This document shows, piece after piece, positions 2,185-31,325 of a stretch of 31,325 bases of DNA. Source of the stretch: Chthonomonas calidirosea. Its GTDB lineage: Bacteria > Armatimonadota > Fimbriimonadia > Fimbriimonadales > Fimbriimonadaceae. Within the stretch, counting starts at the first letter, position 1, and each line of letters opens with the position of its first letter. Both the position numbers and the translations under genes were made by a program. Under the pieces are notes generated by a model, which saw nothing but the letters and a program-made list of their open reading frames with translations, searched no databases and was not told the origin of the DNA. Where the stretch lies: assembly GCA_945859975.1 (NCBI GenBank), contig CAMAPH010000034.1, positions 1 to 31,325 on the forward strand, in the 5' to 3' direction.

Positions 2185-2191
2185 GGCTTTC

Positions 2192-4979: not shown

Positions 4980-5139
4980 TTATGGGCTCCTAACTGGGAA
5001 GTGAAGACGGCAAAAGGAGACGATTCGAGCGTCAAAATTCGTGGCCCCGGCTGGCAACGCTCGGAGTGATGTATACCGTCTCAAAAGGTGGTTGTCAATG
5101 TCTTGGTGGCCGGTAGGATGTTGTAACGTAAGGGACAAG

Positions 5140-5976: not shown

Positions 5977-6053
5977 GGTTCCCAACATTTGGGGCCAGGT
6001 CAACATTCGTTGTACACTCCTTGGCACGGTGCTATTTGGGCATGGTGGCGAGA

Positions 6054-6338: not shown

Positions 6339-6343
6339 TTGGA

Positions 6344-6646
6344 ATGCCGTTCAAGATCAAACTTACGGACACCGCTAAGAAGCAATTAAAAGCACTTGAG
6401 GAAGGCGAGGATTCTAAAGATCTCGTTAAGCTGAAAAAGGTCCGGAAGTGTCTGGGATACCTTCAGACGAATCCCAAGCATCCAAGCCTTGAAACTCACG
6501 AGTACCGTTCGATTTCTGGAGAGCGGGGTGAGAAGGTTTGGGAAGCCTACGTCGAGAACAGAACTTCAGCGGCGTGGCGAGTGTTTTGGCACTACGGACC
6601 GGAGCAAGGCGAGATTACGATCATTGCGATTACGCCGCACCCATGA
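6344..6646 (+). CDS. putative type II toxin, RelE/ParE superfamily
   Basis: 100 aa; F-x-I-x-L-T-x-x-A-x-x-Q-L start, NPKHPSLETH, WEAYV, WRVFWHY...ITIIAITPHP. Confidence 0.72.
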   Translation: MPFKIKLTDTAKKQLKALEEGEDSKDLVKLKKVRKCLGYLQTNPKHPSLETHEYRSISGERGEKVWEAYVENRTSAAWRVFWHYGPEQGEITIIAITPHP

Positions 6647-6651
6647 AGGAA

Positions 6652-6680
6652 GGCCCTGACCTTTGGTCACGGTCAGGGCC
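6652..6680. terminator. hairpin between convergent toxin and fasciclin genes (probable terminator)
   Basis: Perfect 10-bp stem GGCCCTGACC / GGTCAGGGCC with 9-nt loop; only a weak pyrimidine tail on the minus strand. Confidence 0.55.
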
Positions 6681-6690
6681 ATCGAGGTTA

Positions 6691-16122: not shown

Positions 16123-16188
16123 GGCGTTTTTGGCCGGGGCCACGGGATATATATCACAAACTCCACGGAAAGGAATATATTACACACC

Positions 16189-17043: not shown

Positions 17044-18558
17044 TTGAACAACATCGCAAAATTGGCGGTTGCAGTTTTCGGGTGGACGCTTTTGAGCGCC
17101 GCGCACGCTCAGCATCCATGGAATGCCGGTTTCACAAATTCGGCGGTGGTGACGATAGCTGGCATCGAACGGAAGTCTTCCGCAGCGTATGGTTCGCTTG
17201 GGGACACCGGCGGGCACACGTACACGGTTCAAACAAGAGCGACGCCTGGCGGTTGGATTTCAGATCGACCAAACGATCCGGAGCCACACGTCACCGGCCA
17301 AGGGACGCCTAATGTTTGGGTGCACACAGGCAACTTTTACTTCTATAAGGGGGAGAACGGAGCTTATTCAAATCCGGTTTGGGGTCAGTCACCAGCAGAT
17401 ACCAACCATCGTTCGGATTTAGGACTTCCAGGGAGTGGAAATCCAATTGTGGACGACCGAAATATCGAGTTTGAACACTTTTATTCCCCGGACGACACGC
17501 TGCAAGTGAATGACGACCTTGCGGCATACGTGGCTGGCGATGTACTGCCTCGAAAGGTTGAAGAGCGCCGGATCCACATCCCTTCCCCGTTTAGAGGACT
17601 TGAAGATTGGGTTCCGGATTTGGTGAGTATTAGCAGTGGTAGCACCGCTATCCCTTCCATTTCAAAAGAAATAACTGCCGTAACAGACTATTTCCCGCAG
17701 ATTCGAAGCGCGGCGAGCACGGCTCTTCCGGCAAGTGAACTTTTCACGCTGGTGGTTTCGAAGCGTAGTTATCATATTTTCGTTCGTTCCTACGATGTCG
17801 GGCATTGGGAGTACCCGGCAATGGGCGACCCATCCTGGGTTGACACTGGCCGCATCTATCTGTTCGAATACAAGCAGGACCACTTTCACGAGAAGTTTCC
17901 GTATCAGATTCGGAAGGATCTGTCCGGAGCGCAGAGCGTGGACTCGCGTCGGACTTACGGGCAACCGGATGTTGCGGGGCAGTTCCCGGCGGTTGACCCC
18001 AATGCGCCAGCGAGAAACATCACGTTCAAAGACTGGATTTACCGGGGTGGACTTTTCGTCGGGCAGATGAATCCGGACAGCAACGACCTTAGCGGCGCAG
18101 CGCGGATTCAGATCTATCCAGGTGAAGGGCCGAACTCGAATACCGAGATCGCAACGCTATCATTGCTGCATTTAGGATCGGCACCAGGCACTTGGCCAGA
18201 GTTTGCGACTTTGACATCCATTGTCGGTTCAAATGACGCGAATCTGAATGTCCCGCTGACTCAGCTCACTTGGGCAAACAAGTGGACCACCATGATTGGA
18301 AGTGCTGAATTGTTGCTCAACGGGGCTACGCCAAACGACGATTACGTTAACTGGCCCGCATCAATCTTGCCCTCGTCACCGAGGATGATTGTCCAGCACA
18401 AGGACGAGGACTTGGACGAGCCGCCAGCTGATTCCGGTTGGCACTACTTCGCTTCCGCAGCGCGCTTAACGGGCGAGACATCTTATCCGTTGATCGACGG
18501 ACATCCTCGGATTTGGTACGTCGACCGACAGACACCAGTGCGGTGGGTGCAGCCTTGA
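17044..18558 (+). CDS. secreted hypothetical protein, possible C-terminal DNRLRE-like domain; first gene of the RHS operon
   Basis: 504-aa ORF with TTG start and signal peptide ending AAHA-Q. C-terminal half has LFVG...ARIQIY...ATLSL...LTW.N...YVNW...YFAS...PRIWY. Confidence 0.7.
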   Translation: MNNIAKLAVAVFGWTLLSAAHAQHPWNAGFTNSAVVTIAGIERKSSAAYGSLGDTGGHTYTVQTRATPGGWISDRPNDPEPHVTGQGTPNVWVHTGNFYFYKGENGAYSNPVWGQSPADTNHRSDLGLPGSGNPIVDDRNIEFEHFYSPDDTLQVNDDLAAYVAGDVLPRKVEERRIHIPSPFRGLEDWVPDLVSISSGSTAIPSISKEITAVTDYFPQIRSAASTALPASELFTLVVSKRSYHIFVRSYDVGHWEYPAMGDPSWVDTGRIYLFEYKQDHFHEKFPYQIRKDLSGAQSVDSRRTYGQPDVAGQFPAVDPNAPARNITFKDWIYRGGLFVGQMNPDSNDLSGAARIQIYPGEGPNSNTEIATLSLLHLGSAPGTWPEFATLTSIVGSNDANLNVPLTQLTWANKWTTMIGSAELLLNGATPNDDYVNWPASILPSSPRMIVQHKDEDLDEPPADSGWHYFASAARLTGETSYPLIDGHPRIWYVDRQTPVRWVQP

Positions 18559-19469
18559 GAAAAGGAATATGGGTTGGCATTGGAGTGGTGGCCGTCGCGG
18601 CGGGTATCAGTTATGTTGCATTCACTCAGAGGAACGCGCGAACGACTGCAGAAACCGGAAGCACTACAACGCAAGTAGCGGCATTTATCAAGGAGAACGA
18701 GAGCAGTTCTAACCCGTCGGTGCAGAACTCCGTCACTAAGGCTCGGATTCAGCTGGCTTATAAGGCGAGTGAGAACAAGGATTTTAAGTTAGCGAGAAAT
18801 ATCCTCGTGACGGCGGCGAAGTCGCATAAGGGGTCGGATGTCATAAATCCTGACTACGGTTCCCTCTCTGACCAAGCTCGGTATCAGGCAGCAGTTTGCC
18901 TTATTGCGGAAGGTAAGAAGGAACAAGCCCAGGCCGAGTTCCGAAAGATTATTAAGGACCATCCGAAAAGTCCGATTGTTCACGCGGCGTTCAAGCGGTT
19001 GGTTCGTTTGAACAATGGTACTGTCGATCCGCAAGACCAGAATCTGTTGGAACGAGCGATCAAAATTCAGGAAGAAACAATAAAATTTGAACTCTCGGTC
19101 TGCGGCCCGAAGTCCATTGCTTACCTACTTCCGTTACTAGGCAAGCCAAAGGTTGACTATCACCAGGTCGCCAAGAAGTGCGGCACAACGAACGATGGAA
19201 CAACCATTGAGGCGATGCGGAAGGCCCTGGCTGACTACGGCATTACTTCTTATGCCTACCGCGTGAGCCGCCAGGATTTGCCGAAAATTCAGCTGCCAGC
19301 AATTTGGCTTAGCGGCCAGCATTACGTGACCTTGAAGTCGATCTCCGGTGATTCGGCGCTCGTTTACGATTCACTCGTCGGAGGTGAGCGGGAAGCCGCT
19401 TTGCCTCCGATCGATGACCTCAATTTTTCCGCAAACGTGATTGTTTTCAAACCAGTTGGTGTACTTTGA
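18555..19469 (+). CDS. membrane-anchored TPR + C39-like cysteine peptidase
   Basis: TTG at 18555 overlaps the upstream TGA. N-terminal TM helix (GIWVGIGVVAVAAGISYVAF), TPR helices (QARYQAAVCL...AQAEFRKIIKDHPKS), then CGPKS (Cys codon 19101), GTT..AM, QHYV (His 19320), VYDS (Asp 19368). No ABC domain. Confidence 0.78.
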   Translation: MRKGIWVGIGVVAVAAGISYVAFTQRNARTTAETGSTTTQVAAFIKENESSSNPSVQNSVTKARIQLAYKASENKDFKLARNILVTAAKSHKGSDVINPDYGSLSDQARYQAAVCLIAEGKKEQAQAEFRKIIKDHPKSPIVHAAFKRLVRLNNGTVDPQDQNLLERAIKIQEETIKFELSVCGPKSIAYLLPLLGKPKVDYHQVAKKCGTTNDGTTIEAMRKALADYGITSYAYRVSRQDLPKIQLPAIWLSGQHYVTLKSISGDSALVYDSLVGGEREAALPPIDDLNFSANVIVFKPVGVL

Positions 19470-22400
19470 AAAAAGCAAGAAAATTCGCCGCCAGTTCAGT
19501 AGTCCGATCAATCGCCGTGATTGCGGTGCTGAACTTGTCGATACCGACGGGAGCCATTGCGACGGTTGGTAAGCCACTTGCCGATAACTGGCGAGAAACT
19601 GAGGCCGCTCGAAAGCAGGCGGAGACCAGGAAGCAGGTTAAAGACGAGGCGGCAAAGGCAAAGAACTCGACTCGGCCTCTGACAGCAACCGAACAGCGCT
19701 CATTCAAGGGAATGAGCGGACGGAATCCTTACTTGGCCGGGCAGAACAAGTGGGACATCGTGCACAAGGGGGTCAATCTGATGACGGGGAACTACACCAT
19801 CTCCGCGACGGATCTATCCTTTGAAGGCGGGTACGGAATTCCGGTTAACGTCACTCGCTCCTACTCGATGCACAGCATGGATGAAGGTCCATTTGGAATG
19901 GGATGGACGCTCTCGGCTGATGTGCGTTCGACCGCCGGTGGCTTGCTGAAATCTGCGGGTGCGCCTGTTCGGTCGGTACCAGTGACGTTCAAAGAGCGTC
20001 CAAGTGCTCAGCTTAACGATCCGAATGCGGTTTCGGCCAACGGGAAAGTTGCGGCTGATCCTCCGGTGGCCGTGATTGCCACGGACGCGGGCGGGCAAGA
20101 AGAAACGATTCAGAAGGATGTTGATGGCGTGTTGTCAACACCGCCATGGGATAAGAACGTCATCGACACCGAGTACGAGTGGGTGACGCTAGGCACGGAT
20201 CGATACCAAGTCGCCCTGCGCAACACGCTAACAACGGCAGATGGCACGGTTTACGTCTACGAGAAGAAGGGCTATTACACCAACGGCACTCGACCTTGGA
20301 ACAACACGTCAGCTACACCCGAAGCAGCGAACGTTCTGAAAGTCACTTCTGCGACCGACCGACAAGGGAACGTTACGACCTATGGCTATGGCACGACGGA
20401 CGTCACGTTCCAAAAGGCAAACGGGCAGGTAACCGAAAAGCCGTTGACGTCGGTTTATATGCCGAATGGCAGGACGTTGCTCTTCAACTGGACCGGAAAT
20501 CGGATTACTCAAGTTTCGGACAAAGAAAGTTTGAGCGATACCGAGTTCAGAACGGTTAATTACGGCTACACCAACGGCAATCTGACCTCCGTCACGACGC
20601 CTGCCGGCTTTACGACTACTTACGGTTACGGAACGTTTAACGGGGTCATCACCTCTATCACCGACTCTCGAGGCTTTACCACAAGCATTTCGGTGGTTGA
20701 TGGCGGATGGGGGCGAATGCCGAGCGGGGTGAGTGTCGATGCCTTATGGGTTGACAAAATCACCTTCCCGAACGGTGCAGAGACGCGCATTTCTGGGTTA
20801 CCGCGGGTCAACGGGGTCAACGTTGTGTCTGAGTGGGTTAAAGGTACCCAGATCCACAAGTTTGGATATGTGGCGAACTACACAACCTTGGACCAAATTC
20901 CCGTGTGTCGAGTTGCGATTCCGCGCGAATTCCACGACGCGGCAGGTGACTACACCGAGAACTTTTACAACCGATTCTCGCAAGATCTCATCTCAAGCAT
21001 TTCTCGGCGCTATGGGATCACGCGGCCCATCAACGATTTGTCTGGAACGCGATTGCTGGACACGAATACCCTCGTACCGTTCGCAGTGAGAACTGATACA
21101 ACGTACAACTTCATGGGGAATCCGCTGACTAAAGTTGTCAGTGAGTACACCGGCAATGCTGCTAGCGGGTCGACGAATCGAACTGTTCAGAAAACGGTCG
21201 AGTACGCGTACTGGGGGCAGGACAAGTACTGGCAGGAGAAAGCGGTTAGAGACGTTGACGCTAATCTGTTTACTTTCAGCGATTACTATTCCTCAACGGC
21301 TGCTGGTGGGTTGAAAGGACAGACGTATCGGGTTTACGATGCAAAGTATGCTCAGTACAACGTATCGTCGAATTCTCTGAGCACTTGGCGGTCCACCATT
21401 CTGCCGACCGATGCATCGAAGTACTCGGCAGAGTTCACTTACGACACTCTAGGCAGATTAACCCTTGTAAAGAAGCTTCAGTCGGCCACGACCAATCCGT
21501 ACACGTACGTTTCAACCTCGACGAACTATGGATCAAACGGCTCGCCTGGTTGGGGACAGCCACAGTCGGTAACGGAAGATTACGGTGGCCCAAACGCACG
21601 CACGACTACGACTTTGGAATATACGGGCTGGGGCAAACCGCGGAAGGTGCAGGATGCTAAGGGCAATGAGTTCTTTACGGATTTTGATCGGGATGGCAGG
21701 GTTCTTTCGGTGCAACAAACGGCGGGCACAGGGTCGCCAAGGGCGCTGTTAGCCTACAGCTACGGCAGTGCCGGTGTTTTGAACGGGATGCCCACTCAGG
21801 TGGTAGACGGTCTTTCCGGTATAGCACAAAGTATCCAGTACTTCCCTTATGCGGGGACAAACGATGGCTCTGATGCCTACTACTATGCTCTCGCGAGTGC
21901 GGGGCAAGTTCAATCGGTAACCCAGACGCGCGGTACAGCGCCTAACCAGGACACTTACACAACGGCATACACCTACACCTTTGCAGGCGACCGAAGGACA
22001 GCAGAATACACCTCCTTCCTCGGCACGAATGCGAAGTGGGAGTACAGCGATTACGTTTCGGTGGGCGATCTCACCAGCCCAAGTCGTGCATTCCAAACGT
22101 TACGCAAGGTTAACCCGGATGACTCGACGGCGGAAGTATTCCACTACGGGTACGACGCTTTGGGACGGCTCTGTAACGCGGCGTTTGCACAAACACCGCA
22201 GCTGACCAATGGGGTTGCGGACTGGAGCAAGCTGCCGTCGATAAGGGCGCGAACTTATAACGAGTTTGACTCTGGCGGTCGACTCGTTCGGACCGAAACT
22301 TATAAAGACACCCTTTCTGGCAGTGGAACGACCTACACCAGCACGCCGATCATCGGCAACGAGTACGGCTACGAGCTGACGGGAGCAAACCGAGGTTTGC

Positions 22401-23695
22401 GAACGAGCTCAAGCAGCAAGATCGGCAACGGAAGCGGTTGGCAGACTGAGTGGACGGAGACTTATGGCTATGAGGCGCAGCGGGACTATCTGACTTCGTT
22501 CTCGACGACAGATGGAGCATCGAGCCCGAACCAGAGTTGGAGCTATGATGCGGCGGGGAACCGGTCGGGGGCGACTTATGACTCGCTGAATCGGATGACG
22601 GCTCGGAGCACGATCAGTTATACGAACGACGTACTCGGTAATCGGACGAGCAGAACCTACAACGGCGTGACCGTCAACTATGCTTGGGACGTGCTCAACC
22701 GGATGACACAGCACACGCTGACGAGCGGTGCGGTCGTTTCCTATGAGTATCGTGCGGATGGGATGAGGACTCGGAAGTTGGCGGTAGGGACCGGGCAGCA
22801 GGAGATTTTGTATTTACATGACGGCCAGAATTCGATTGAGGAGGCTACTTTCTCAAACGGTCCCACTCGAGGTGCGTACACGGAGATCGTTCGGAACGGG
22901 ATTGGGGCGCGAGGGATCGATTATGTGGAGGTCTTTAAGACCGGATCGGCGACTTCGGTACGGTTTCCGGTCTACGATGGCCATGGCAATATGACGGCAT
23001 GTCTGTTGCGTGATGGTGCGGGTGGGTTTACTTTGACCTCTCGCCGGGCGTATGACCCTTGGGGGGCGATGCGGCAATGGGGGACTCATCCCAGCGGATC
23101 TTCGGCTTACCAAGGCGCGCCTTCTTCCCGTTACGTGGGTTCGTTGGGACACCAACAGGATGACGACTCGGGCCTGTACTATATGCGAGCGAGGTACTAC
23201 GAGCCAGGTTCTGGTCGGTTTATCAGCGAGGATCCGGCCAGAGATGGGTTGAATTGGTTTGCTTACTGTAATAACGATCCGGTTCTAAACGTCGATGCGA
23301 CAGGCAAACATTGGGAAAAGATAGTCGACGGGTTTAAGTTTTTGTTTCACGACAAAGGAGGAGGTCATCTTCACATTTATGACAGTAAGGGCGAAGAACT
23401 CTTCTCAAGGCGGCTCAGCGGTGGTGCGTGGCACGGTGACGGCGGAAAGTTTCCTCAGGAAGTGCTTGAGGCACTAATAAAGGCAGTGAAAGCTGGTAAT
23501 AATGGAGCCCTACGCGTAATTCAGAGGTTTGCTAGCGGAGGATACGGAATTGGGAAAAAAGTCCTAAGAGCGCTAAAGGCAGCCGCTGGCATTACAGGAC
23601 TAGTAATCTATGCGTACACTTCAATCGACGCTTATGCCCAGTTTGATCCGGCAGGCTTTGCCGATATCATTGCAACGATAGGAGGCTTCGATTGA
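19466..23695 (+). CDS. RHS/YD-repeat polymorphic toxin (signal-like N-terminus, DUF6531-like domain, RHS core, variable CT)
   Basis: VNLMTGNY...TRSY...GPFGMGW (DUF6531-like), many YD repeats, core DDDSGLYYMRARYYEPGSGRFISEDP...N.FAYC.NDPV..VDATG, then a 128-aa CT from 23309. Confidence 0.93.
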   Translation: MKKARKFAASSVVRSIAVIAVLNLSIPTGAIATVGKPLADNWRETEAARKQAETRKQVKDEAAKAKNSTRPLTATEQRSFKGMSGRNPYLAGQNKWDIVHKGVNLMTGNYTISATDLSFEGGYGIPVNVTRSYSMHSMDEGPFGMGWTLSADVRSTAGGLLKSAGAPVRSVPVTFKERPSAQLNDPNAVSANGKVAADPPVAVIATDAGGQEETIQKDVDGVLSTPPWDKNVIDTEYEWVTLGTDRYQVALRNTLTTADGTVYVYEKKGYYTNGTRPWNNTSATPEAANVLKVTSATDRQGNVTTYGYGTTDVTFQKANGQVTEKPLTSVYMPNGRTLLFNWTGNRITQVSDKESLSDTEFRTVNYGYTNGNLTSVTTPAGFTTTYGYGTFNGVITSITDSRGFTTSISVVDGGWGRMPSGVSVDALWVDKITFPNGAETRISGLPRVNGVNVVSEWVKGTQIHKFGYVANYTTLDQIPVCRVAIPREFHDAAGDYTENFYNRFSQDLISSISRRYGITRPINDLSGTRLLDTNTLVPFAVRTDTTYNFMGNPLTKVVSEYTGNAASGSTNRTVQKTVEYAYWGQDKYWQEKAVRDVDANLFTFSDYYSSTAAGGLKGQTYRVYDAKYAQYNVSSNSLSTWRSTILPTDASKYSAEFTYDTLGRLTLVKKLQSATTNPYTYVSTSTNYGSNGSPGWGQPQSVTEDYGGPNARTTTTLEYTGWGKPRKVQDAKGNEFFTDFDRDGRVLSVQQTAGTGSPRALLAYSYGSAGVLNGMPTQVVDGLSGIAQSIQYFPYAGTNDGSDAYYYALASAGQVQSVTQTRGTAPNQDTYTTAYTYTFAGDRRTAEYTSFLGTNAKWEYSDYVSVGDLTSPSRAFQTLRKVNPDDSTAEVFHYGYDALGRLCNAAFAQTPQLTNGVADWSKLPSIRARTYNEFDSGGRLVRTETYKDTLSGSGTTYTSTPIIGNEYGYELTGANRGLRTSSSSKIGNGSGWQTEWTETYGYEAQRDYLTSFSTTDGASSPNQSWSYDAAGNRSGATYDSLNRMTARSTISYTNDVLGNRTSRTYNGVTVNYAWDVLNRMTQHTLTSGAVVSYEYRADGMRTRKLAVGTGQQEILYLHDGQNSIEEATFSNGPTRGAYTEIVRNGIGARGIDYVEVFKTGSATSVRFPVYDGHGNMTACLLRDGAGGFTLTSRRAYDPWGAMRQWGTHPSGSSAYQGAPSSRYVGSLGHQQDDDSGLYYMRARYYEPGSGRFISEDPARDGLNWFAYCNNDPVLNVDATGKHWEKIVDGFKFLFHDKGGGHLHIYDSKGEELFSRRLSGGAWHGDGGKFPQEVLEALIKAVKAGNNGALRVIQRFASGGYGIGKKVLRALKAAAGITGLVIYAYTSIDAYAQFDPAGFADIIATIGGFD

Positions 23696-24462
23696 AGCCT
23701 GACTATGAAGAGTATATTAGGCAAGCCTATTCGGATGCGGAGATGGTTGCGATCGAGCGGCCTGCAACTGTACGACTCGGCATTCACCTTCCAGATGTGA
23801 CCGCGATTAGCGACGAATTTGGTAAGAAGATTGCGGCAGAAATTCTAAGCGATTGCCCGCCGAGGCGAGCTCGCATCCGCCCATTTCGGGTCATGCGTTG
23901 CGCAATTACGAAAGAGAATTTTCGTAGGACCTACCTTGAATCCTCTTTGCCAATCCCAGATCAAGATAAACTGTACTGGCATAGCACTTTCGATATTTCG
24001 GGATACTCTGATGACAAGCCAGTGCTAGGAGTTTCATATGCGGAGGCCATTACATTTTGTTCCCTTCTTGGCGGTCGTTTGCTTCGAGAAGAAGAATTTG
24101 AGTTTTTGCTCAGGGGGCGTCACCGCTGCAGTTTTCTTGGGCATCAAGCTAGTCGAAGCCTTACTCAAGGGACCGTGAAGGAAATTTTGCCGGAAGTGAT
24201 TCCTGTTGATTCCCCAGATCTAGCATGCAGCTCTCAAGGTGTAAAAGGACTATGGGGAAATGTCCGTGAACTCGTGCAAGGAGCTTATGGTCCGGATTAT
24301 TGGCTCAGAGGCCCTGTCATCAAACCTCTGGGACGTCGGGACAAAATCCTCTATTCGGGCCTGCGAATTGAGATGAATGAGGACTATCTATCCGGAGCGA
24401 TGGTCGGGATGCGCTGCCATAACTTAGAGCCAGCCGGGTTTAGAGTGGCCTTCGACTTGTGA
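23692..24462 (+). CDS. FGE-sulfatase/SUMF1-fold protein in the cognate immunity position
   Basis: PVLGVSYAEAITFC..LGGRL..EEEFE...RG, G.KGLWGNVRE, GFRV motifs; TTG start overlaps the RHS stop. Confidence 0.72.
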   Translation: MKPDYEEYIRQAYSDAEMVAIERPATVRLGIHLPDVTAISDEFGKKIAAEILSDCPPRRARIRPFRVMRCAITKENFRRTYLESSLPIPDQDKLYWHSTFDISGYSDDKPVLGVSYAEAITFCSLLGGRLLREEEFEFLLRGRHRCSFLGHQASRSLTQGTVKEILPEVIPVDSPDLACSSQGVKGLWGNVRELVQGAYGPDYWLRGPVIKPLGRRDKILYSGLRIEMNEDYLSGAMVGMRCHNLEPAGFRVAFDL

Positions 24463-24596
24463 GCAGGCTTGTTAGGACGCTTAATATTTCTAATCGTTAG
24501 GATTCAATTTGCATTAAGTCCGGTGGCGGCATTAAGTTCAGCGGCAAGTGGCCCTTCCTGGCCATTCGGACGACCGTCCGAAATTTGGCTGGTCGC

Positions 24597-24647
24597 GTCC
24601 TCATCCCCAGTCCCCTTCTCCATCGGAATGGAGAAGGGGCTCAAACG
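24597..24647. repeat. REP-like hairpin element, copy 1
   Basis: GTCCTCATCCCC-x3-CCCCTTCTCCAT-CGGA-ATGGAGAAGGGG-CTCAAACG. Perfect 12-bp stem; 24612-24647 is identical to 26631-26666. Confidence 0.85.
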
Positions 24648-24801
24648 ATTTCTGGTGTACGATAATTGCGGAAACATGACGGCATGTTTGTTGCGTGAAG
24701 CGGCGGGGTGGTTAAGCTTGATTTGGCTCCAGGCCGATCACGCCGGGGCGGACGATGCTCTCAGAGCGTCGTCTAACCAGGGAGCGCTGTCCTGGCGATG
24801 A
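24646..24801 (+). pseudogene. decayed RHS core fragment A
   Basis: RFLVYDNCGNMTACLLREAAGWLSL...ASSNQGALSWR versus RHS core RFPVYDGHGNMTACLLRDGAGGFTL...SSAYQGAPSSR. Confidence 0.8.
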
Positions 24802-25139
24802 TGGACTTACTTAATCTGATCGCGGAAATCGGAAGCGAAGCGCCTGAGGGGCAGAAACATTACTTTCGAGCCATCCAATTCGGCGTGCAGATCCTGTTCA
24901 TGATTGGGCTTGGCGGGCTTACGAAAGATGGACGAGTACTTGCCGCACACACTTATTCTTTGATGGTCCTATGGGTTCACGAATCGGGGATTTACTCTGG
25001 ATTTCGTGGAGTGGGGTTGAGTTTTGTGGTTCAAACTCTCCTTGCCGTGGTTTTCGTACAATATTTTAAGTCAAAGCCAAGGACCTGGGACAAGACTGAG
25101 CCTGAGTTGGAAACTGAGCGGACGAGTTCGGCAAATTAA
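24798..25139 (+). CDS. small membrane protein, orphan immunity candidate
   Basis: 113 aa, about 3 hydrophobic segments; ATGA overlap with the stop of remnant A. Confidence 0.55.
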   Translation: MMDLLNLIAEIGSEAPEGQKHYFRAIQFGVQILFMIGLGGLTKDGRVLAAHTYSLMVLWVHESGIYSGFRGVGLSFVVQTLLAVVFVQYFKSKPRTWDKTEPELETERTSSAN

Positions 25140-25197
25140 AATTCCTAAGATCTTCCGCTTGCCTGGCGCGCTGGTTCAGGTTGTGTTCAGTTCGACT

Positions 25198-25533
25198 ATG
25201 ATGAACTCCCGGTACAGCCGTGTGGTTCGGCACTTGAGGAGACAGCCGGACGGCGAACGTCTGAGATTCATCATTCGCTATTGGTACGTGGAGAACGCAT
25301 GGCTTCTGACTTCAACACAGGGATTGGCCGTGCCTGGAGATTCGGGCGCACTGTTACGGCGGATGAAGGGAGGTGAAACCTCCGAGGAAGACATAGCTCT
25401 GGAGTTAAGAGCGCTGGATGCGCCGACTTTCGAGGAAGTTCATCAGAAGATTAAACAATCGGCAATCGCGGAGGCACTGCGGTGGCCAGTGACGCGGGAA
25501 GATATAGCCATGCAATGGCCCGAGCTTCAGTGA
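25198..25533 (+). CDS. hypothetical protein, orphan immunity candidate
   Basis: 111 aa from ATG 25198, co-oriented within the array. No family recognised. Confidence 0.45.
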   Translation: MMNSRYSRVVRHLRRQPDGERLRFIIRYWYVENAWLLTSTQGLAVPGDSGALLRRMKGGETSEEDIALELRALDAPTFEEVHQKIKQSAIAEALRWPVTREDIAMQWPELQ

Positions 25534-25593
25534 GGTGGATACTTAGTGATGCCGTTAGACATTCCGAGAAACTAAGAACGTGTTTACGTAGCT

Positions 25594-26253
25594 ATGAACA
25601 ACCAAGAAGTGATCGTTCTGCCTGGTTGGCACGGCGCCGCCTTGGAGGTCGGGGAAATGCCGTCGCCGTTTGTGGCTTTTCTGCAACTTGTTGAGACGGT
25701 CCAACCGAAAGTACGCGGGCTGATGTTGACTGAGCTGGAGACTCCGGAACTGCGTGGGGTACCTCGAGTGGAGTCAGAAGGCTTACAGATTCTCGAAAAC
25801 ACCCCTTCGGTTTTTGGGCAGACTTGGAGCTTTAACGATGTGCCTTCGATAGTAGCGGGTATAGAGTATATGAGCCCGGTATCTACGACGCCCTTAGCCC
25901 TCTTGTTTGCGCGGCGGTCTACCCGTGATGCTTGGCTAAATGGCCTGTACCGGGACCCACTTACACTCGAGGTTTGTTCGGCTTCTAGCTTTGCAAACTA
26001 CGCCGAGGGTATAGACGGGTGTCTTTTTGCGGTATTTGCCGATGTCTTCGAATATAGTGTCAATACCGCTTTTTTGTGGCACCGAAGCGATTTTGACTTG
26101 ACTGAATTGCCTATTGGCACCTTGCATGCGTCGTCGGCAGACATTGCCAGGAATTGCGTTCTTGGAACAGACTGGTCGCCAGAAGACGGGCAAATTATGC
26201 CGCCAGACTCCTTGGCTGCAAACCTTGAACGTCGGCAGATGATGCGGCGTTAA
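25594..26253 (+). CDS. hypothetical protein, orphan immunity candidate
   Basis: 219-aa ATG-started acidic ORF, co-oriented within the array. Confidence 0.55.
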   Translation: MNNQEVIVLPGWHGAALEVGEMPSPFVAFLQLVETVQPKVRGLMLTELETPELRGVPRVESEGLQILENTPSVFGQTWSFNDVPSIVAGIEYMSPVSTTPLALLFARRSTRDAWLNGLYRDPLTLEVCSASSFANYAEGIDGCLFAVFADVFEYSVNTAFLWHRSDFDLTELPIGTLHASSADIARNCVLGTDWSPEDGQIMPPDSLAANLERRQMMRR

Positions 26254-26306
26254 ACTCGGCTAACCTGAGTTCGAGACGAACAGCAGTTGGGGAGCAGTCT
26301 CTAAAG

Positions 26307-26582
26307 ATGAGCGAGGTCGAGCACATTGAACCATTTCGGACCCGAATATTTGGGCACCTATTGGCTACTGCAGAAGTGTCGTCCGCGGACGGCGAGGAGA
26401 GAATGGACGTCCACGTTATCTATCAAGGCAGGGCGGCCTTCGGGTCGATTTTGCTCCATCATCGGACTGAGCCAGTAAGTGAAGCCGAGTTTGAGCAGAT
26501 GGTCGAGGTGCTCGTTTTAGCGCGTCGGCGGGAATTGCTTAAGTTCCTTGCAAGTTGCCTCGAGGGAGAAGGCCGTCAATGA
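26307..26582 (+). CDS. hypothetical protein, orphan immunity candidate
   Basis: 91-aa acidic ORF with GGGGAG upstream, co-oriented within the array. Confidence 0.5.
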   Translation: MSEVEHIEPFRTRIFGHLLATAEVSSADGEERMDVHVIYQGRAAFGSILLHHRTEPVSEAEFEQMVEVLVLARRRELLKFLASCLEGEGRQ

Positions 26583-26615
26583 CCCGGCGCGACGATGTTG
26601 GTTTCGGCTTGGCGG

Positions 26616-26666
26616 GTCCTCATCCCCCGACCCCTTCTCCATCGGAATGGAGAAGGGGCTCAAACG
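26616..26666. repeat. REP-like hairpin element, copy 2
   Basis: Same 12-bp stem, CGGA loop and flanks as 24597-24647. Confidence 0.85.
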
Positions 26667-26740
26667 GTTTTTCGTGTACGACCGGAGCATGGCGGCATGT
26701 TTGTCGCGTGAAGTTTCGTGCCGGACGGTTTGATTTTGCG
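26665..26740 (+). pseudogene. decayed RHS core fragment B
   Basis: cggtttttcgtgtacga...catggcggcatgtttgtcgcgtgaag matches the core region encoding RFPVYD..GNMTACLLRD, with indels. Confidence 0.7.
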
Positions 26741-26762
26741 GATGCCTTTAGCGCGGGAGTGA

Positions 26763-27335
26763 ATGATGGATTGGGTGCCTAATCCGAGCATCGAGGACCT
26801 GAGAGCCGTTGGTGTCAATGATCCGGGCGATTGGACCCAGGCATGGATTGGTAGGGCGTCCGTTGACGGAGTTCAGTGGGACGATTCGGCTATCGATGAA
26901 ATGCGCGATCTGATCGGCCGTCTTTTGGATCGGTTAGGGCCCGCGCTTTGTTTGCGGGTTGTTGTTTCTGGATTGGATAACGCGCCGGTTGGTGTCCCAA
27001 AAGATTCGGGTGAGGTCTTTTGCGCGGATTGGGTTCAAGATGAATCTGAGCTTTGGTTGCCTAGAAGCGCGGCTTCGGACGTCGGGTATTTCCAAATCTG
27101 CTTTGGTTTAGAACTCCAAGCTATTCGTGATCACCTGGGAACAGCTTCGTGGATTTCAGCAGGTTCAGATTTGGCACAAGCCTGTTCGAACGAAGTGCAA
27201 ACCGGGCGCGTTTTTCGTTTGGGCTCGACTTCGTTAAGAGTGTCTGGAGCGATGGACGGAAGAGGTGGCGAATTTCTGTGTTTTGCGGCATCGGAAAGCG
27301 CTGGCTCTGCTTTTCAATATTGCATCGATGCTTGA
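26763..27335 (+). CDS. hypothetical protein, orphan immunity candidate
   Basis: 190-aa acidic ORF with GGGAG upstream, directly after remnant B. Confidence 0.55.
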   Translation: MMDWVPNPSIEDLRAVGVNDPGDWTQAWIGRASVDGVQWDDSAIDEMRDLIGRLLDRLGPALCLRVVVSGLDNAPVGVPKDSGEVFCADWVQDESELWLPRSAASDVGYFQICFGLELQAIRDHLGTASWISAGSDLAQACSNEVQTGRVFRLGSTSLRVSGAMDGRGGEFLCFAASESAGSAFQYCIDA

Positions 27336-27467
27336 ATTCGTGACTGTTGGTTCCGCTCTCGGCATCGAGTATATAGTGGTCCTTTGGACGGGGCAAAAGT
27401 TTTCCGTTCCATTTCCCATGTACGATGATCACGGAGCATGGCGGCATGTTTGTTGCGTGAAGATTCG
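27334..27467 (+). pseudogene. decayed RHS core fragment C
   Basis: EFVTVGSALGIEYIVVLWTGQKFSVPFPMYDDHG versus core EIVRNGIGARGIDYVEVFKTGSATSVRFPVYDGHG, followed by a frameshifted catggcggcatgtttgttgcgtga. Confidence 0.75.
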
Positions 27468-27499
27468 GGAGCGGTGGGTGCAAGCGGTGGGACGACACG

Positions 27500-27982
27500 A
27501 TGAAGCATAGGATGGAGTTTCGGCCGTTTACGCGAAGATTCCTGGGAATCGTCGGTACAGCTTTCGTTCTGCTAGGCACGACCGCGCTGTTTGCCTTCGT
27601 GCAGATCTTACGTACGCAAACTCCGATAGAGGACCCACTTGGGTACGTGGTTCTGGCGATGTTTGGTGCAGGCGGAACGTACTTCGCCTACCTCGGATTT
27701 TGTTGTTGGAGGCTTGTTCGGGACATGGCATACAAACTTGTTCGGGACGAGAACTCCTTCTCCTTGTTGCTCTTAGATGGCTCGACCCAGCCGCCCGAAA
27801 AGGTTCGACGGACCGGCGTGCATCCGCTGCCTGGGGGCGAGCTTTGGTATTTTCGTGTGGACAGTCGTTGGGTAGTGCTGGATTGTCGACTGGCGAAGCC
27901 GGAAGCCACCGAGATAGCACATGATAATCCTTCGGCCATTTCCTCACTGCAGATAGTGCCTAGGAATCGAGCAAATGATTAA
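27500..27982 (+). CDS. membrane protein (2 TM), orphan immunity candidate
   Basis: 160 aa with two clear hydrophobic helices; follows remnant C. Confidence 0.55.
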   Translation: MKHRMEFRPFTRRFLGIVGTAFVLLGTTALFAFVQILRTQTPIEDPLGYVVLAMFGAGGTYFAYLGFCCWRLVRDMAYKLVRDENSFSLLLLDGSTQPPEKVRRTGVHPLPGGELWYFRVDSRWVVLDCRLAKPEATEIAHDNPSAISSLQIVPRNRAND

Positions 27983-28328
27983 GTTGACCCAGACTGAACG
28001 CATGCGAGTTGTCGGAGGGTTGGTGCTCTTGGTTTGCTGGATCGGCTCGCGGGTTCCTGAAGGCTCAAGCCCGCAGATTGATTCCGTCATGATTGCGTCG
28101 TCAGTAGCGATGTTGGCGTCAACGAGTCCGTCGGTTGGAAATATCCGGAACAAGCTCTTAACAATCACGGCGATCGTGGGTATTGCGGTTTGCCTTGCAA
28201 TATTGATTAAGGAAAACGCGCCGAAGGGTTGGACTCAAATACTGCCGCCGGTCCAGCAAACCGCGTACCTTGTGGGGTGCATGTTGGTATTCGCATGGAA
28301 AGTACGAGAATCAAGTGAGCTCATTTGA
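27975..28328 (+). CDS. small membrane protein, orphan immunity candidate
   Basis: 117 aa, about 4 hydrophobic segments; 8-nt overlap with the previous gene. Confidence 0.55.
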   Translation: MIKLTQTERMRVVGGLVLLVCWIGSRVPEGSSPQIDSVMIASSVAMLASTSPSVGNIRNKLLTITAIVGIAVCLAILIKENAPKGWTQILPPVQQTAYLVGCMLVFAWKVRESSELI

Positions 28329-28371
28329 GTTGGCTTCTTAGAAGGCGTACGGCCGTTGAGGGTAAGTCGAG

Positions 28372-28728
28372 ATGGTAGTTATACAGACTGGTCCTGGTTT
28401 TGAACTTAACAACCAAAAAGCTGCCCGGACATATTTGACTCTAGGTAATTGCGATTCCCTAAGTCAGATGGAGATTGGTTGGGTGGAGTGGTTTGCCGCG
28501 GACTTTGGGAAGCTTCTTCTTGACCAGGTGCGCTTTACCCGTTGCGATTTGACTTCTGCAGACTTTTCTCGTTGTACTTTGAAGGATGTCGTTTTCTTTG
28601 AATGCACGTTGATTGGGGTTCGCTTTCCGGAAGAGACGGGAAGTAACTGGGAATGTCTTGATTGCCATGATTCCCTCAAGACCGTTTCGCCTTGGACGAA
28701 GCCGGTTGGTCCGCCTTGGGGTAGGTAG
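28372..28728 (+). CDS. pentapeptide repeat protein
   Basis: ADFGK LLLDQ VRFTR CDLTS ADFSR CTLKD VVFFE CTLIG VRFPE shows 5-residue periodicity. Confidence 0.7.
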   Translation: MVVIQTGPGFELNNQKAARTYLTLGNCDSLSQMEIGWVEWFAADFGKLLLDQVRFTRCDLTSADFSRCTLKDVVFFECTLIGVRFPEETGSNWECLDCHDSLKTVSPWTKPVGPPWGR

Positions 28729-28942
28729 CTTCGGTTATGAGGTTGCGCAAGCGCGGTGATGGTGAGACTTTGGCTTTGCGTTTCCTCATCCCAGGCTGCT
28801 TTGCTCGGAAGTTCGGGTTTGTTTTTTGGAATTTGGCTCCACAAAGTGATTGCCATTGTCTGACAATGTTTGCGTGGTCGGTGGTTGCAGTTCGCGCGGG
28901 GGTCGCTTTGCTCCGTGGAATTTTTCGGGTCGGTTTGGCGGT

Positions 28943-28990
28943 CCAGGGGTTTTCAACCCCTGGCTACCTTCTTTGACCCCTACCGGGGTC
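28943..28990. repeat. double-hairpin REP-like element (second type)
   Basis: CCAGGGGTT-TTC-AACCCCTGG (9-bp stem), 11-nt spacer, then GACCCC-TACC-GGGGTC (6-bp stem). Confidence 0.6.
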
Positions 28991-29055
28991 GGGGCTGGGA
29001 CGAGTTCGGAGACGATAACTTACAACGCGGGTTCGCGGTTGGTGACTTCGATGGA

Positions 29056-30012
29056 GGAGCGGTGGTTTCTTATGAGTACCGTGCGGATGGGATGCGGACT
29101 CGGAAGTTGGCGGTGGGGACGGGGCAGCACGAGATTTTGTATCTGCACGATGGCCAGAACCCGGTTGAGGAGGCGACTTTCTCGAATGGTCCGACGCGGG
29201 GTGCTTACACGGAGATCGTTCGGAACGGGCTTGGGGCTCGGGGGATTGATTATGTGGAGGTCTTTAAGACTGGATCGGCGACTTCGGTGCGGTTTCCGGT
29301 GTACGATGCTCACGGGAACATGACGGCATGTTTGTTGCGTGATGGTGCGGGTGGGTTTACTTTGACCTCTCGCAGGGCGTACGACCCTTGGGGGGCGATG
29401 CGTCAGTGGGGCACTCATCCGAGCGGGGCTTCGGCTTACCAGGGCGCGCCTTCTAACCGTTATGTAGGTTCGCTGGGACACCAGCAGGATGACGACTCGG
29501 GGCTTTACTACATGCGGGCGAGGTATTACGAGCCAGGGTCGGGACGGTTTATCAGTGAGGATCCGGCAAAACATGATACAAATTGGTTCATTTATGCAGG
29601 AAATCAACCAACTGTTCGTGCTGACGCTAATGGAAAGATCGACGAAGATACTCGGGAATTAGCCGGTGCCTTCATTGCGGCGATGGGCATGGCTGGAATG
29701 ATCACCTCGGTTAGCTTTCCTGATCCTGCGAGGGCATGGAACGATATCGTAGCCGGAACCTTGCTTGGGCGAGGGTTCGTCAAACAAATATTGATGGAGT
29801 ACGGATTCACGATTGATAACGTGAGAAAAGGTTTCTATCCGGTCAAAGAGCTGTTCAATGGTAGAGATTTTCGTACCGCATTTGACACGGTGATAAAGCC
29901 AGTACCGGGTGGTGTAGCTATTCTCGGCGGGTTTGCTGGCCGGATTATTTCGATAGCCTCCTCATATGCCATGCTTCAATATGGTGTAGGTGTATACATG
30001 GGGGTATGGTGA
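29056..30012 (+). pseudogene. orphan RHS core + alternative C-terminal toxin module (5'-truncated, frame intact)
   Basis: 29056-29568 is collinear with 22727-23239 (513 nt, no indels, 164/171 aa identical by manual comparison). After DANGK there is an unrelated hydrophobic 124-aa CT. No convincing start codon. Confidence 0.88.
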
Positions 30013-30015
30013 TTT

Positions 30016-30432
30016 ATGAAGCCTCTTTTCGAACTTAGCCTGATCATGAGCATAGGTGTAATAGTAGTGGCTTGTGCTTTTCTAATCATGTTGAAGAGTG
30101 CAAATAGGCAATCAAATAAAAGAGCGCAAATTTTGGAAGCTATAGAATCAGGCTCTCAGGAATTCAGTTGGAATTCAAGATTTGTTTCTTTGCCTTCACC
30201 TTCGCTAACCACCGCATACCGCGAGGCCAGCTTGAAATTAGTTCAAGAGGACCTGGTGATAATTCGAACAGCAATAGCAGGGGGTGCGGTAATGGATCGC
30301 GAAAAGCGGGGCCGTTTGGAGTCCCTTGAGAGCGCTTATACACAGTACCAGTACTTGTTGGAAAATATGCCATCGGATCCAGCTGCAAACCGGGCATATA
30401 CAGGCATTCGAGTGGCGTTAAACACGCTATGA
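30016..30432 (+). CDS. putative immunity protein of the orphan RHS-CT (N-terminal TM helix)
   Basis: Starts 3 nt after the orphan CT stop; visibly AT-richer, like the CT; LSLIMSIGVIVVACAFLIML hydrophobic segment. Confidence 0.65.
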   Translation: MKPLFELSLIMSIGVIVVACAFLIMLKSANRQSNKRAQILEAIESGSQEFSWNSRFVSLPSPSLTTAYREASLKLVQEDLVIIRTAIAGGAVMDREKRGRLESLESAYTQYQYLLENMPSDPAANRAYTGIRVALNTL

Positions 30433-30728
30433 TAGGGTCAGTCGCTGGTGGACTGCAGTCTAGTTCTGTGACGCACACCCTGGGATCGGCGTTTAAGATG
30501 AAGATGGGAGTCTATGTAACCTAGTTCACCGTCATCTCGACCATCCTGATGTGGCTCGCTCGGCAAAGTCCCGCGAAGCCCGCTGGGACAGTGCAGTTAC
30601 TCGGTTTCTTTGCGATTTTGATTTATCAGCAGTTGTAGTAGAAGGGACCGTAGATGGCCCGCAAGGCAGTCACGACGTTTATCCGCTTCATCTGTTGGTG
30701 ATCTTACATAAGTGATGATCACTTAAGA

Positions 30729-30787
30729 TGGCGGTGGGACGGGGCAGGAGGAGATTTTGTATCTGCACGATGGCCAGAACCCGATTG
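30729..30787 (+). pseudogene. decayed RHS core fragment E
   Basis: tggcggtgggacggggcaggaggagattttgtatctgcacgatggccagaacccgattg nearly matches 29108-29167, with a 1-nt deletion. Confidence 0.8.
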
Positions 30788-30800
30788 TATATGCGGCGCT

Positions 30801-30840
30801 TTGAATGGCTTTGCGTGGCCTTGCGTGGCTTCGTGTGGCT
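30801..30840. repeat. short tandem repeat, 4 x 10 bp
   Basis: TTGAATGGCT / TTGCGTGGCC / TTGCGTGGCT / TCGTGTGGCT. Confidence 0.55.
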
Positions 30841-30900
30841 GGAGAAGCGACTCTCGGGAAGGTTGGATTTTGCCTTGACGAAAACTTCGGCAGTTCGGCT

Positions 30901-30948
30901 CTCTTCCCCCAACCCCCTTCTCTCGCTGGGGGCGAAAGAAGGGGGCTC
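30901..30948. repeat. REP-like hairpin element, divergent copy 3 (possible terminator of the convergent gene)
   Basis: CTCTTCCCCCAA-CCCCCTTCTCTCGC-TGGGG-GCGAAAGAAGGGGG-CTC: 14-bp stem with 1 mismatch, same architecture as copies 1 and 2. Confidence 0.65.
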
Positions 30949-30954
30949 GCGACA

Positions 30955-31325
30955 CTAACGGGCCCTTTCGAAGGAGAGAGTGGTGGTCATCGATTGGTGG
31001 CCGCGGGGTGGGATGGTTTCTAGGGGGGCGGTGACTTCTAGTTCGGCGTAGCGGGGGGAGTTACTGAGGAAGACCTGCTGGGCTTTGCCGTTGTCGGCGT
31101 AGGTTGCTTCGGGGCGGTAGGGGTGGGTTAGGCGGAGCCAGAAGTTGCCGATTTTGGCCCGGAGGTAGCCCGCCTTGGTGGCCATGCCGTACTTTTGGGC
31201 AGTGGCGAAGTTTGGCAAAATGGCGATTTCGTTGGCGTCGCGATAGATGCGAGTCGCGCCTTGGGTGGTCCAGGGATAGGCTTCCCAGCCAGCGGGAAAG
31301 AGGGCCGACGGCTCGTAGGCAAAGC
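30955..31325 (-). CDS. DUF4380-like protein, C-terminal part (starts outside the window)
   Basis: Frame is open to the window edge: ...QKYGMATKAGYL...RPEATYADNG...QVF...YAELEVTAPLETIPP, resembling the DUF4380 C-terminus. Confidence 0.55.
   Translation of the reverse strand, partial: FAYEPSALFPAGWEAYPWTTQGATRIYRDANEIAILPNFATAQKYGMATKAGYLRAKIGNFWLRLTHPYRPEATYADNGKAQQVFLSNSPRYAELEVTAPLETIPPRGHQSMTTTLSFERAR

Follow-up and report, generated by a model that had tools for sequence, protein, structure and literature searches.

The stretch of DNA analysed here (contig CAMAPH010000034.1 of assembly GCA_945859975.1 from Chthonomonas calidirosea; 31,325 nucleotides, hereafter the window) is contig C34 of a 3.12-Mb genome in 101 contigs (95.8% complete), and carries, between positions 17044 and 24462, four abutting open reading frames (ORFs) on the forward strand, designated g1 to g4, the third of which encodes an RHS toxin. 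g1 (17044-18558) encodes 504 amino acids, g3 (19466-23695) 1409, and g4 (23692-24462) 256. The longest ORF for g2 (18438-19469; 343 amino acids) would overlap g1 by 120 nt. Because the 79%-identical homolog of locus L071 starts at the GTG codon at position 18543, and because the basic stretch and hydrophobic segment in the family alignment begin there, g2 probably starts at this codon (18543-19469; 308 amino acids), which would leave an overlap with g1 of only 16 nt. The g2/g3 and g3/g4 overlaps are 4 nt each, and an AGGAGG resembling a Shine-Dalgarno sequence lies ∼7 nt upstream of the TTG start of g4. Four overlapping, co-oriented genes had already been proposed from the letters of the window alone (the sequence-only reading), and the coordinates bear this out, with overlaps of 16, 4, and 4 nt when the probable g2 start is used. 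The same holds for the N-terminal signals or anchors ascribed to the first three genes: judged by eye, g1 and g3 begin with signal-like segments and g2 with a 19-residue anchor. Near-identical DNA was found in lake and freshwater metagenomes (20 rows from 16 studies, one of which may be the source of the window DNA); none of the listed holders is an RNA data set. All named records with a relative of g2 are metagenome-assembled genomes of Armatimonadota, labeled Fimbriimonadales, Fimbriimonadaceae, or Chthonomonadaceae.

Loci containing a g2 homolog were gathered from the genomes of 40 relatives, from species-representative genomes, and from metagenome contigs; the genome searches covered the Armatimonadota, the phylum of the window, and the metagenome search used a single narrow peptide pattern from one alignment and surely missed distant loci. 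After dropping duplicates (L048, L049, L053, L056, L058, L059, L061, L069, L070, and L084), 35 non-identical loci remained besides the window; some of them may be near-duplicates, and related genomes do not count as independent samples. Directly downstream of g2, an RHS gene was present on the same strand in all 28 loci with at least 300 nt of downstream DNA (in L041 with a gap of 655 nt). On the other side of g2, of 34 loci with DNA upstream, 32 had g1, recognized by BLAST or by a profile of its C-terminal domain, as the directly adjacent gene; the two loci lacking it are L044, where the RHS gene is also frameshifted, and L054. Among 41 relatives, 11 encode a strong g2 match, nine of these also encode g1, and 10 encode an RHS protein with the module-type N-terminus (E ≤ 1e-47), the eleventh locus being cut by a contig end. 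Conversely, a full RHS gene with this N-terminus was found in none of the 30 relatives without a strong g2; one of them (G024) contains a 99-amino-acid remnant. In a sample of 301 genomes of the phylum, 82 contained g2 matches of any kind, many covering the C39 part only. Of the better loci in this sample 18 were examined, three from close relatives and 15 from more distant families; the three close ones carry the full triad, although one of them (L101) is apparently identical with locus L051. Thus, g1-g2-RHS is a conserved syntenic unit, and, being syntenic in dozens of loci, the arrangement is far beyond chance. Non-co-occurrence of the three genes in other genomes, which the sequence-only reading had named as grounds for giving up its proposal, was not what the neighborhood search returned.

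On its sequence, g2 encodes a membrane-anchored homolog of double-glycine leader peptidases with the catalytic Cys, His, and Asp intact. A short basic N-terminus is followed by the 19-residue hydrophobic segment (∼18567-18623), a TPR region (∼18774-18989; Pfam TPR_6/TPR_19), and a Peptidase_C39 domain (∼19083-19457; PF03412, E 1.1e-11, 45.2 bits against a cut-off of 22). The catalytic residues, numbered from position 18438, are Cys222 (19101-19103), His295 (19320-19322), and Asp311 (19368-19370); in 48 diverse members of the family neither the Cys nor the His varies and conservation of the Asp is 90% or more, and in 12 close members all three are invariant. A profile built from the 48 members matched the peptidase domains of PCAT1, LahT (“double glycine motif protease domain”), and ComA with E-values from 3e-14 to 2e-13, and its TPR part matched periplasmic CpoB (E 3e-8). 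The very short basic N-terminus followed by a hydrophobic 19-mer recurs in 40 of the 48 members (median start of the hydrophobic segment at residue 5), and for this reason the segment is taken for a signal anchor, with most of the protein predicted to lie outside the cytoplasm. The family is sizeable: a cut-off of E ≤ 1e-30 gives 212 cluster representatives and one of E ≤ 1e-10 gives 485, most of those listed being 300–350 amino acids long. In the complete-looking genome G028 (C1:1524388-1525395) the g2 profile match reads through one TAG stop, and the ORF in L039 (3395-4396) starts just after it; the part before the stop is probably no more than an extension of the match in the upstream direction.

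The peptidase domains of PCAT1, LahT, and ComA are homologous to that of g2 and share its catalytic triad. Unlike them, g2 (308–343 amino acids) holds only the anchor, the TPR, and the C39 domain: neither the transmembrane nor the ATPase domain of an ABC transporter is present on the ORF, as the sequence-only reading had stated, and the protein has a single N-terminal anchor and would face the periplasm. A stand-alone C39 peptidase acting in the cell envelope is known from the Fap amyloid system (FapD). g2 resembles FapD in being a C39 peptidase outside an ABC transporter; however, the NCBIfam match (NF058616) was weak and far below the cut-off (E 1.6e-4, 21 bits against 330), and the TPR and anchor, the operon, and the presumed substrate differ.

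Reading from the N-terminus, the RHS protein encoded by g3 (19466-23695) starts with a signal peptide and a linker, continues with a leader-like motif and DUF6531, and ends with the RHS shell, the Rhs-associated core, and a variable tip. The predicted Sec signal peptide (residues 1–32; 19466-19561), read from the sequence and an alignment of 19 N-termini, consists of a basic part, a hydrophobic part, and an A-x-A end. DUF6531 (residues 102–154; 19769-19927; PF20148, E 2e-9) marks the start of the N-terminal plug region. RHS repeats follow (PF05593, E 5e-11; two repeat matches above the cut-off in the genome scan), and the shell ends in the Rhs-associated core, the C-terminal aspartyl autoprotease plug (residues 1196–1280; 23051-23305; TIGR03696, E 7.1e-19, 68 bits against a cut-off of 32.5). 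This core aligns with TccC2 (6l7i, E 5.9e-9) and Tse5 (8cp6, E 8.7e-7), and its last motif is D-x-x-G-K, a variant of D-P-x-G-L; the C-terminal autoprotease core is retained. Homologous RHS proteins are 38–46% identical over ∼1,280 residues, and their alignments stop near residue 1281, behind which lies the variable C-terminal toxin domain (residues ∼1283–1409; 23312-23692). A PDB sequence search with residues 49–400 returned no match. Elsewhere in the genome (G000) at least three further full RHS genes (1,254, 1,274, and 1,426 amino acids) occur, at loci on C3 (∼52.5–56.3 kb), C15 (∼45–49 kb), C10 (∼30–34 kb), and at the start of C14. Those on C3 and C15 are closely related paralogs whose starts resemble signal peptides. 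These additional genes have neither g1/g2 homologs nor a leader-like N-terminus, and are ∼28–30% identical to g3 in the core only.

When the RHS N-termini were aligned, the signal peptide was followed by a variable charged linker and then by a conserved motif ∼20 residues before DUF6531 (residues 69–83; 19670-19714). The motif, conserved among 28 unique close homologs, has the consensus S/T-R-x-L-[ST]-A-x-E-[MQL]-[RK]-x-[LFM]-[QK]-G-[RK], or in shorter form L-[ST]-x-x-E-[LMQ]-x-x-[LMF]-x-G-[RK]. The classical double-glycine leader reads L-S-x-x-E-L-x-x-I-x-G-G, and the Leu, the Glu, the two hydrophobic positions, and the Gly of the RHS motif are spaced as in that leader; the Gly at -2 is present in 25 of the 28 sequences. 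By this likeness the RHS protein carries a conserved leader-like motif between signal peptide and shell, with a putative C39 cleavage site after residue 83. The motif ends in G-A in L035 and in G-R in L083, and distant families have canonical G-G (L095) or G-A (L098) at the same site. A strict leader pattern, chosen after the motif had been seen so that the counts illustrate a contrast and are not a test, matched 10 of 38 RHS N-termini versus a single match among the 1,711,558 residues of six-frame ORFs of the genome; in 121,300 residues of distant loci it matched only RHS N-termini. The sole other genomic match (G000:C22:4066-6276, reverse strand; residue 614 of a 736-amino-acid six-frame ORF) is probably due to chance. 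The RHS motif differs from the leaders of PCATs, with which it shares the spacing, in being internal, behind a Sec signal, on a protein of 150 kD, and in its last residue, which is mostly Arg or Lys. In the distant locus L099 (Armatimonadota), a second RHS gene (5082-6998, forward strand; RHS_repeat E 1e-67), divergent from the g2-RHS pair there and located behind a small TPR-only ORF (4498-5118), encodes a leader-like motif ending in G-A at ORF residues 21–32 with no hydrophobic signal before it, and looks like an RHS protein with a classical N-terminal double-glycine leader.

The likeness of the motif to a leader extended to a predicted complex. g2 residues 85–343 (48-row alignment) and RHS residues 37–111 (27-row alignment) were modeled together, and the ipSAE score was 0.70, 0.70, and 0.74 in three runs, compared with 0.00 for the best of three controls. 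The mark applied to this score was reached by 116 of 157 solved complexes and by 2 of 215 mismatched pairs, a calibration that applies only approximately, our own alignments having been used for the prediction. The runs shared at least 61% of their contacts, and the partner pLDDT (predicted local distance difference test) was at least 67. On g2, the confident interface comprised residues 215, 218–223 (including Cys222), 252–258, 261, 272–278, 280, 291, 293–296 (including His295), 312–313, 328–331, 333, and 340; on the RHS protein it comprised residues 60, 63–64, 66–72, 74, 76–85, and 98, that is, exactly the leader-like motif. The pairs with the lowest error were RHS Leu72, Glu76, Gln77, and Phe80 (leader positions -12, -8, -7, and -4) against g2 residues 256–258. 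The model therefore reads the motif as a leader, which is a likeness and not proof that this pair binds in the cell. The proposal that the toxin is held through the TPR gained nothing from it: all confident contacts fall in the C39 domain, and the absence of confident contacts for the TPR part (residues 85–214) in this prediction is no evidence either way.

Most likely, then, g2 is a dedicated membrane-anchored C39 peptidase that cuts an internal leader of the RHS precursor. The maturation step put forward in the sequence-only reading is supported in two independent ways, by the conserved motif and by the controlled complex prediction, in which this motif docks on the catalytic Cys and His; the cleavage itself is what we infer from them. 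Alternatively, the C39 domain might bind the leader-like helix without cutting it, g2 being a membrane assembly or retention factor or a chaperone like the inactive C39-like domains of RTX transporters, or it might cut another substrate, such as g1 or the toxin tip. The TPR, which suggests a protein-binding scaffold, would suit such a role, as would the Arg or Lys found at -1 in most members (an unusual residue for C39 substrates) and the fact that complex prediction gives docking only, not chemistry. Yet pure binding domains of the C39 fold typically lose their catalytic residues, whereas the Cys and His of g2 are invariant and the Asp almost so across the 48 diverse members, and distant members have canonical G-G or G-A at the site. 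As for another substrate, no comparable conserved motif was noticed in g1. We consider this explanation unlikely.

Cleavage by g2 could also account for a second peculiarity of g3. In Rhs1 of P. laumondii, a type VI secretion system (T6SS) effector, the shell is cut from the N-terminal PAAR part by autocleavage at P-V-x-x-x-S/T-G-E, for which the preceding Asp is required, as set out in the portion of PMC8636562 that describes this site. In the g3 family, the start of DUF6531 instead reads K-G-V-x-L-x-T-G-N (alignment positions G66, G72, and N73 are conserved in 27 sequences), without the Asp-Pro and the Glu of that signature. We infer that cleavage in trans by g2, ∼20 residues upstream, replaces the lost autocleavage in cis. 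g3 otherwise shares with T6SS Rhs effectors (Rhs1 of P. laumondii, Tse5 of P. aeruginosa) the DUF6531-type plug, the aspartyl autoprotease core, the polymorphic tip, downstream immunity, and orphan tips, and possibly also the separation of an N-terminal part from the shell just before the plug. It differs from them in having a Sec-type signal peptide, neither PAAR nor prePAAR, no VgrG or Eag neighbor and no T6SS found, and, in place of the autocleavage signature, a trans-encoded C39 peptidase and the leader-like site.

The product of g1 (17044..18558) appears to be a secreted protein with a signal peptide (residues ∼1–23; basic residues, then hydrophobic ones, then an AxA-like end, read by eye), a variable β-rich N-terminal part, and a conserved C-terminal domain (residues ∼285–495). 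No Pfam or NCBIfam family was assigned to the window protein or to 22 family members at E ≤ 0.1, apart from stray matches to fn3 in one member and New_glue in two. A word-based search found only four close full-length homologs, and the Atlas neighbors all score below 0.9 and are leads only. The N-terminal half varies among homologs, often contains Thr/Ser/Gly-rich linkers, and has an FN3 domain in one of them. The AlphaFold model (22-row alignment; pLDDT 73.6, predicted TM-score 0.74) is nearly all β, with pLDDT mostly 80–94 for residues 285–495. As modeled, this domain is a β-sandwich resembling glycan-binding modules: it superimposes on 8wab_B (chondroitin sulfate-binding; Z 14.9, root-mean-square deviation [rmsd] 2.9, 163 residues aligned) and 7vbo (alginate-binding; Z 14.1, rmsd 2.8, 158 residues aligned), with the next unrelated row at only Z 8.0, and Foldseek gave probability 1.00 and a TM-score by target of 0.67. 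The domain is ∼14% identical to those proteins, matched no sequence family in the 22 members, and is not joined to a glycan-degrading enzyme. It may reasonably be supposed, from the predicted fold, that g1 binds a glycan on the surface of either the producer or the target; the display or targeting role suggested in the sequence-only reading is compatible with this.

The toxin tip itself (127 residues) belongs to no Pfam family, and a search of 5.8 billion proteins with residues 1283–1409 returned no homolog; among the genome and the collected loci, it recurs only, in identical form, in a near-identical strain (L068-L070). Its hydrophobic Gly/Ala-rich tail has counterparts in the alternative tips of relatives and in an orphan tip of the window (29047-30012), which suggests that the tips are membrane-active toxins. 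The gene that follows, g4 (23692..24462), encodes a protein of the FGE-sulfatase fold (PF03781, E 2.1e-11, 44.4 bits against a cut-off of 23.3; all Atlas neighbors are of the FGE family) without a signal peptide. It was found only alongside the identical tip (L068-L070) and not in L071, whose RHS protein is 83% identical and ends in another tip, so that g4 probably encodes the immunity protein cognate to this tip. A family of FGE-domain proteins, Tsi3, has been described as conferring immunity to T6SS effectors (Lopez et al, 2021 preprint). As in the Tse3-Tsi3 pair of that account, a protein of this fold is encoded directly after the toxin and would act by binding, not catalysis; in contrast to that pair, the partner of g4 is an RHS tip in a bacterium without a detected T6SS, and the likeness of g4 to Tsi3 is the shared Pfam domain.

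Behind g4, an array of orphan cassettes extends to the end of the window (24469..31325, forward strand) and seems to continue at the start of contig C1, as judged from tblastn of g3 and of the fragment against the genome, pairwise alignment, and the ORF lists. It contains degenerate fragments of the RHS core end (24469-24801 and ∼26608-26718) and, at 29047-30012, an orphan core end that shares 90% identity with g3 residues ∼1088–1281 but carries a new, hydrophobic tip. Small ORFs are interspersed, and several with membrane segments are candidate immunity genes (24798-25139, 27500-27982, and 30016-30432). The cassette content differs between the window and the near-identical strain L068. DNA identity between the two is 89–94% from 17000 to ∼20500 and 99–100% from ∼20500 to 24500, and the proteins are 99.2% (RHS), 95.8% (g1), and 91.5% (g2) identical; because the RHS protein is this similar despite the divergence of the 5′ DNA, the 5′ third of its gene differs mostly at synonymous sites. 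The 3′ two thirds of the RHS gene and g4 look recently exchanged, which fits recombination inside the RHS core. Four distant loci (L089, L090, L091, and L097) have RHS C-terminal fragments arrayed upstream of the TPR-C39 gene and no full RHS gene behind it, which reflects either another gene order or the loss of an RHS gene that once followed.

The toxin tip and the gene following it are polymorphic, and orphan tips come after them. This bears on the question of the target. The module might not be an interbacterial weapon but a toxin against eukaryotic grazers or prey, or a device for surface adhesion or kin recognition, in which g1 would bind a eukaryotic or matrix glycan and the RHS protein would form a shell like that of Tc toxins or teneurins. 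The resemblance of the g1 fold to modules that bind chondroitin sulfate or alginate is in keeping with this, as are the life of the organism in lake water and the lack of an identifiable enzymatic family in the toxin tips. However, polymorphic tips with co-varying small genes, arrays of orphan tips, and recombination inside the core are hallmarks of self/non-self toxin-immunity systems, as the body of the survey by Zhang et al (2012) presents them, and no TcA, TcB, SpvB, or β-propeller family was matched on g1 to g4 or the scanned neighbors. A purpose other than competition among bacteria therefore seems distinctly unlikely.

Because Omp85, LpxC, and three secretins are encoded in the genome, the cell has an outer membrane, and an RHS toxin would have to cross it. 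No PAAR, VgrG, Eag, WXG/LXG, or TpsB family was found on the scanned ORFs of the window, in agreement with the absences (CdiB among them) listed in the sequence-only reading, nor was a TPS or ShlB/POTRA family found there, TpsB not having been sought genome-wide. TssB (VipA), TssC (VipB), PAAR, and VgrG-type Phage_GPD were not found in the 95.8%-complete genome, and TssC (VipB) was found in none of the 41 relatives. Export through a T6SS encoded elsewhere, which would have spoken against the proposal, is not what the genome suggests, since no sheath, spike, or PAAR was found. A broader version of this objection is that a machine encoded elsewhere, an unrecognised contractile or type II-like one, delivers the RHS protein, with g1 and g2 as adaptors and the N-terminal hydrophobic segment as an anchor. 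A lone Hcp-like ORF (G000:C8:77914-78288; L063:9852-10457, reverse strand; PF05638, E 9e-9) lies near a contig end, the assembly is in 101 contigs and not quite complete, three secretins are present, and some passage through the outer membrane is required anyway. Against such a machine stand the missing T6SS components in this genome and, for TssC, in the relatives, the absence of PAAR or prePAAR from the RHS protein, and the surroundings of the Hcp-like ORF, which adjoins a Kelch-repeat ORF and a DUF642/PEP-CTERM protein, not secretion genes. Delivery of this kind is regarded as very unlikely.

RHS toxins that do without a T6SS are known from Gram-positive bacteria, where WapA-type toxins combine a signal peptide, RHS repeats, and a polymorphic tip; a paper on WapA of S. 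suis reportedly mentions DUF6531. g3 shares these three traits and the independence from T6SS. The hosts of WapA are Gram-positive, though, whereas that of g3 has an outer membrane to cross. We know of no dedicated C39 peptidase, internal double-glycine-type leader, or g1-like partner of WapA, and none turned up in the literature search. In the article of Zhang et al (2012), supplements aside, signal-peptide RHS toxins are listed under Sec and the type II secretion system, and C39-like domains are listed only as toxin domains. Full-text searches of the literature, subscription journals and those supplements aside, found no RHS protein paired with a stand-alone TPR-C39 peptidase or an internal double-glycine leader. 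That the gene set is undescribed, as had been suspected, is therefore true in part: FGE immunity (Tsi3) and RHS proteins with signal peptides were known in the portions of the literature just cited, and the pairing of RHS, TPR-C39 peptidase, and internal leader was not found in it.

Considering all of this, chances are slightly better than even that the locus is an Armatimonadota module for an RHS polymorphic toxin that depends on Sec and not on a T6SS, and that two accessory genes are dedicated to it. In such a module, g1, g2, and the RHS protein would all be exported by Sec, and the TPR-C39 peptidase would be held on the outer face of the cytoplasmic membrane. There, g2 would bind the amphipathic leader helix of pro-RHS and cut after the Gly-(Arg/Lys/Met) pair, at about residue 83, so that the pro-region (or tether) preceding the cocoon plug at the N-terminus would come off; this cut would take the place of the N-terminal autoproteolysis of T6SS Rhs proteins, the signature of which has been lost from the g3 family. 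The mature cocoon would then leave the periplasm by some route (three secretins are encoded in the genome) and act on competitors, with g1 as a surface-binding partner by way of its glycan-binding-module-like domain. The C-terminal aspartyl autoprotease would free the small, membrane-active-looking tip, and the FGE-fold protein g4 would protect the producer.

Several observations weigh against this model. The looser association in distant families is one: of the 15 distant loci, only six have an RHS gene following g2 (L086, L087, L092, L095, L098, and L099), in four RHS C-terminal fragments precede g2 (L089, L090, L091, and L097), in five no RHS was seen in the available DNA (L088, L093, L094, L096, and L100), and g1 was detectable in one (L086, E 4e-7). 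The tight g1-g2-RHS triad is therefore a Fimbriimonadales-level feature, and a looser g2-RHS link reaches further across the phylum. One relative (G006) encodes a second RHS protein with the module-type N-terminus that has no adjacent g1 or g2, although it could be served in trans. The C-terminal flank of the g2 anchor is basic too, and the topology was deduced from the short basic N-terminus. As far as is known, characterised C39 peptidases want Gly, Ala, or Ser at -1, and in 38 RHS sequences this residue is R in 21, K in 8, M in 3, A in 3, and G, S, or L in one each. When N-terminal pieces of four RHS proteins were compared with NCBIfam at E ≤ 10, no bacteriocin-leader family appeared, only stray matches to xylF and GspM. 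Complexes of C39 domains with leaders have been solved, and the complex prediction may owe part of its success to the model remembering them. Judged from its sequence, g4 is a cytoplasmic protein, an unusual pairing with a tip that looks membrane-active. Finally, a cocoon of 150 kD has no demonstrated way across the outer membrane.

Overall, the interpretation given in the sequence-only reading is partly supported. A more far-reaching version, which we regard as possible but doubtful, is that the module represents an unrecognised pathway for the export and maturation of RHS cocoons in bacteria with an outer membrane and no T6SS, in which Sec export and an N-terminal tether would be followed by release at an internal double-glycine-type leader through a periplasmic TPR-C39 peptidase of unusual Gly-Arg/Lys specificity, g1 guiding the toxin to the surface of its target cells. 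In that case, a leader and its peptidase would together form a portable unit that serves very large toxins and not only small bacteriocins. RHS toxins are among the commonest bacterial weapons, and their handling outside the T6SS of Gram-negatives and the Sec/WapA route of Gram-positives is poorly known. The locus offers a third arrangement, from a little-studied phylum common in lakes and soils, in which the protease (Cys222 of g2), the cleavage site (RHS residues ∼82–84), and the partner (g1) can each be tested. Should g2 cut as predicted, the use of double-glycine leader peptidases would be widened from small ABC-exported peptides to a 150-kDa Sec substrate with a Gly-Arg/Lys site, and the model offers an explanation for the missing N-terminal autocleavage signature in this RHS lineage.

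Upstream of the module lie unrelated housekeeping genes, among them those for a GH26 glycoside hydrolase, a glyoxalase, and a racemase. On the reverse strand at 1714-4979, an ABC exporter (ABC_membrane and ABC_tran; 728 amino acids) is followed by a DUF1854 protein, both unlinked to the RHS module. This transporter (2793-4979), the sole ABC transporter of the window, was rejected as a partner of g2, being 12 kb away, on the other strand, surrounded by unrelated genes, outside the conserved unit, and devoid of a C39 domain. Also on the reverse strand, an ORF of 865 amino acids without a Pfam family (12562-15159) adjoins the GH26 gene (15199-16143).

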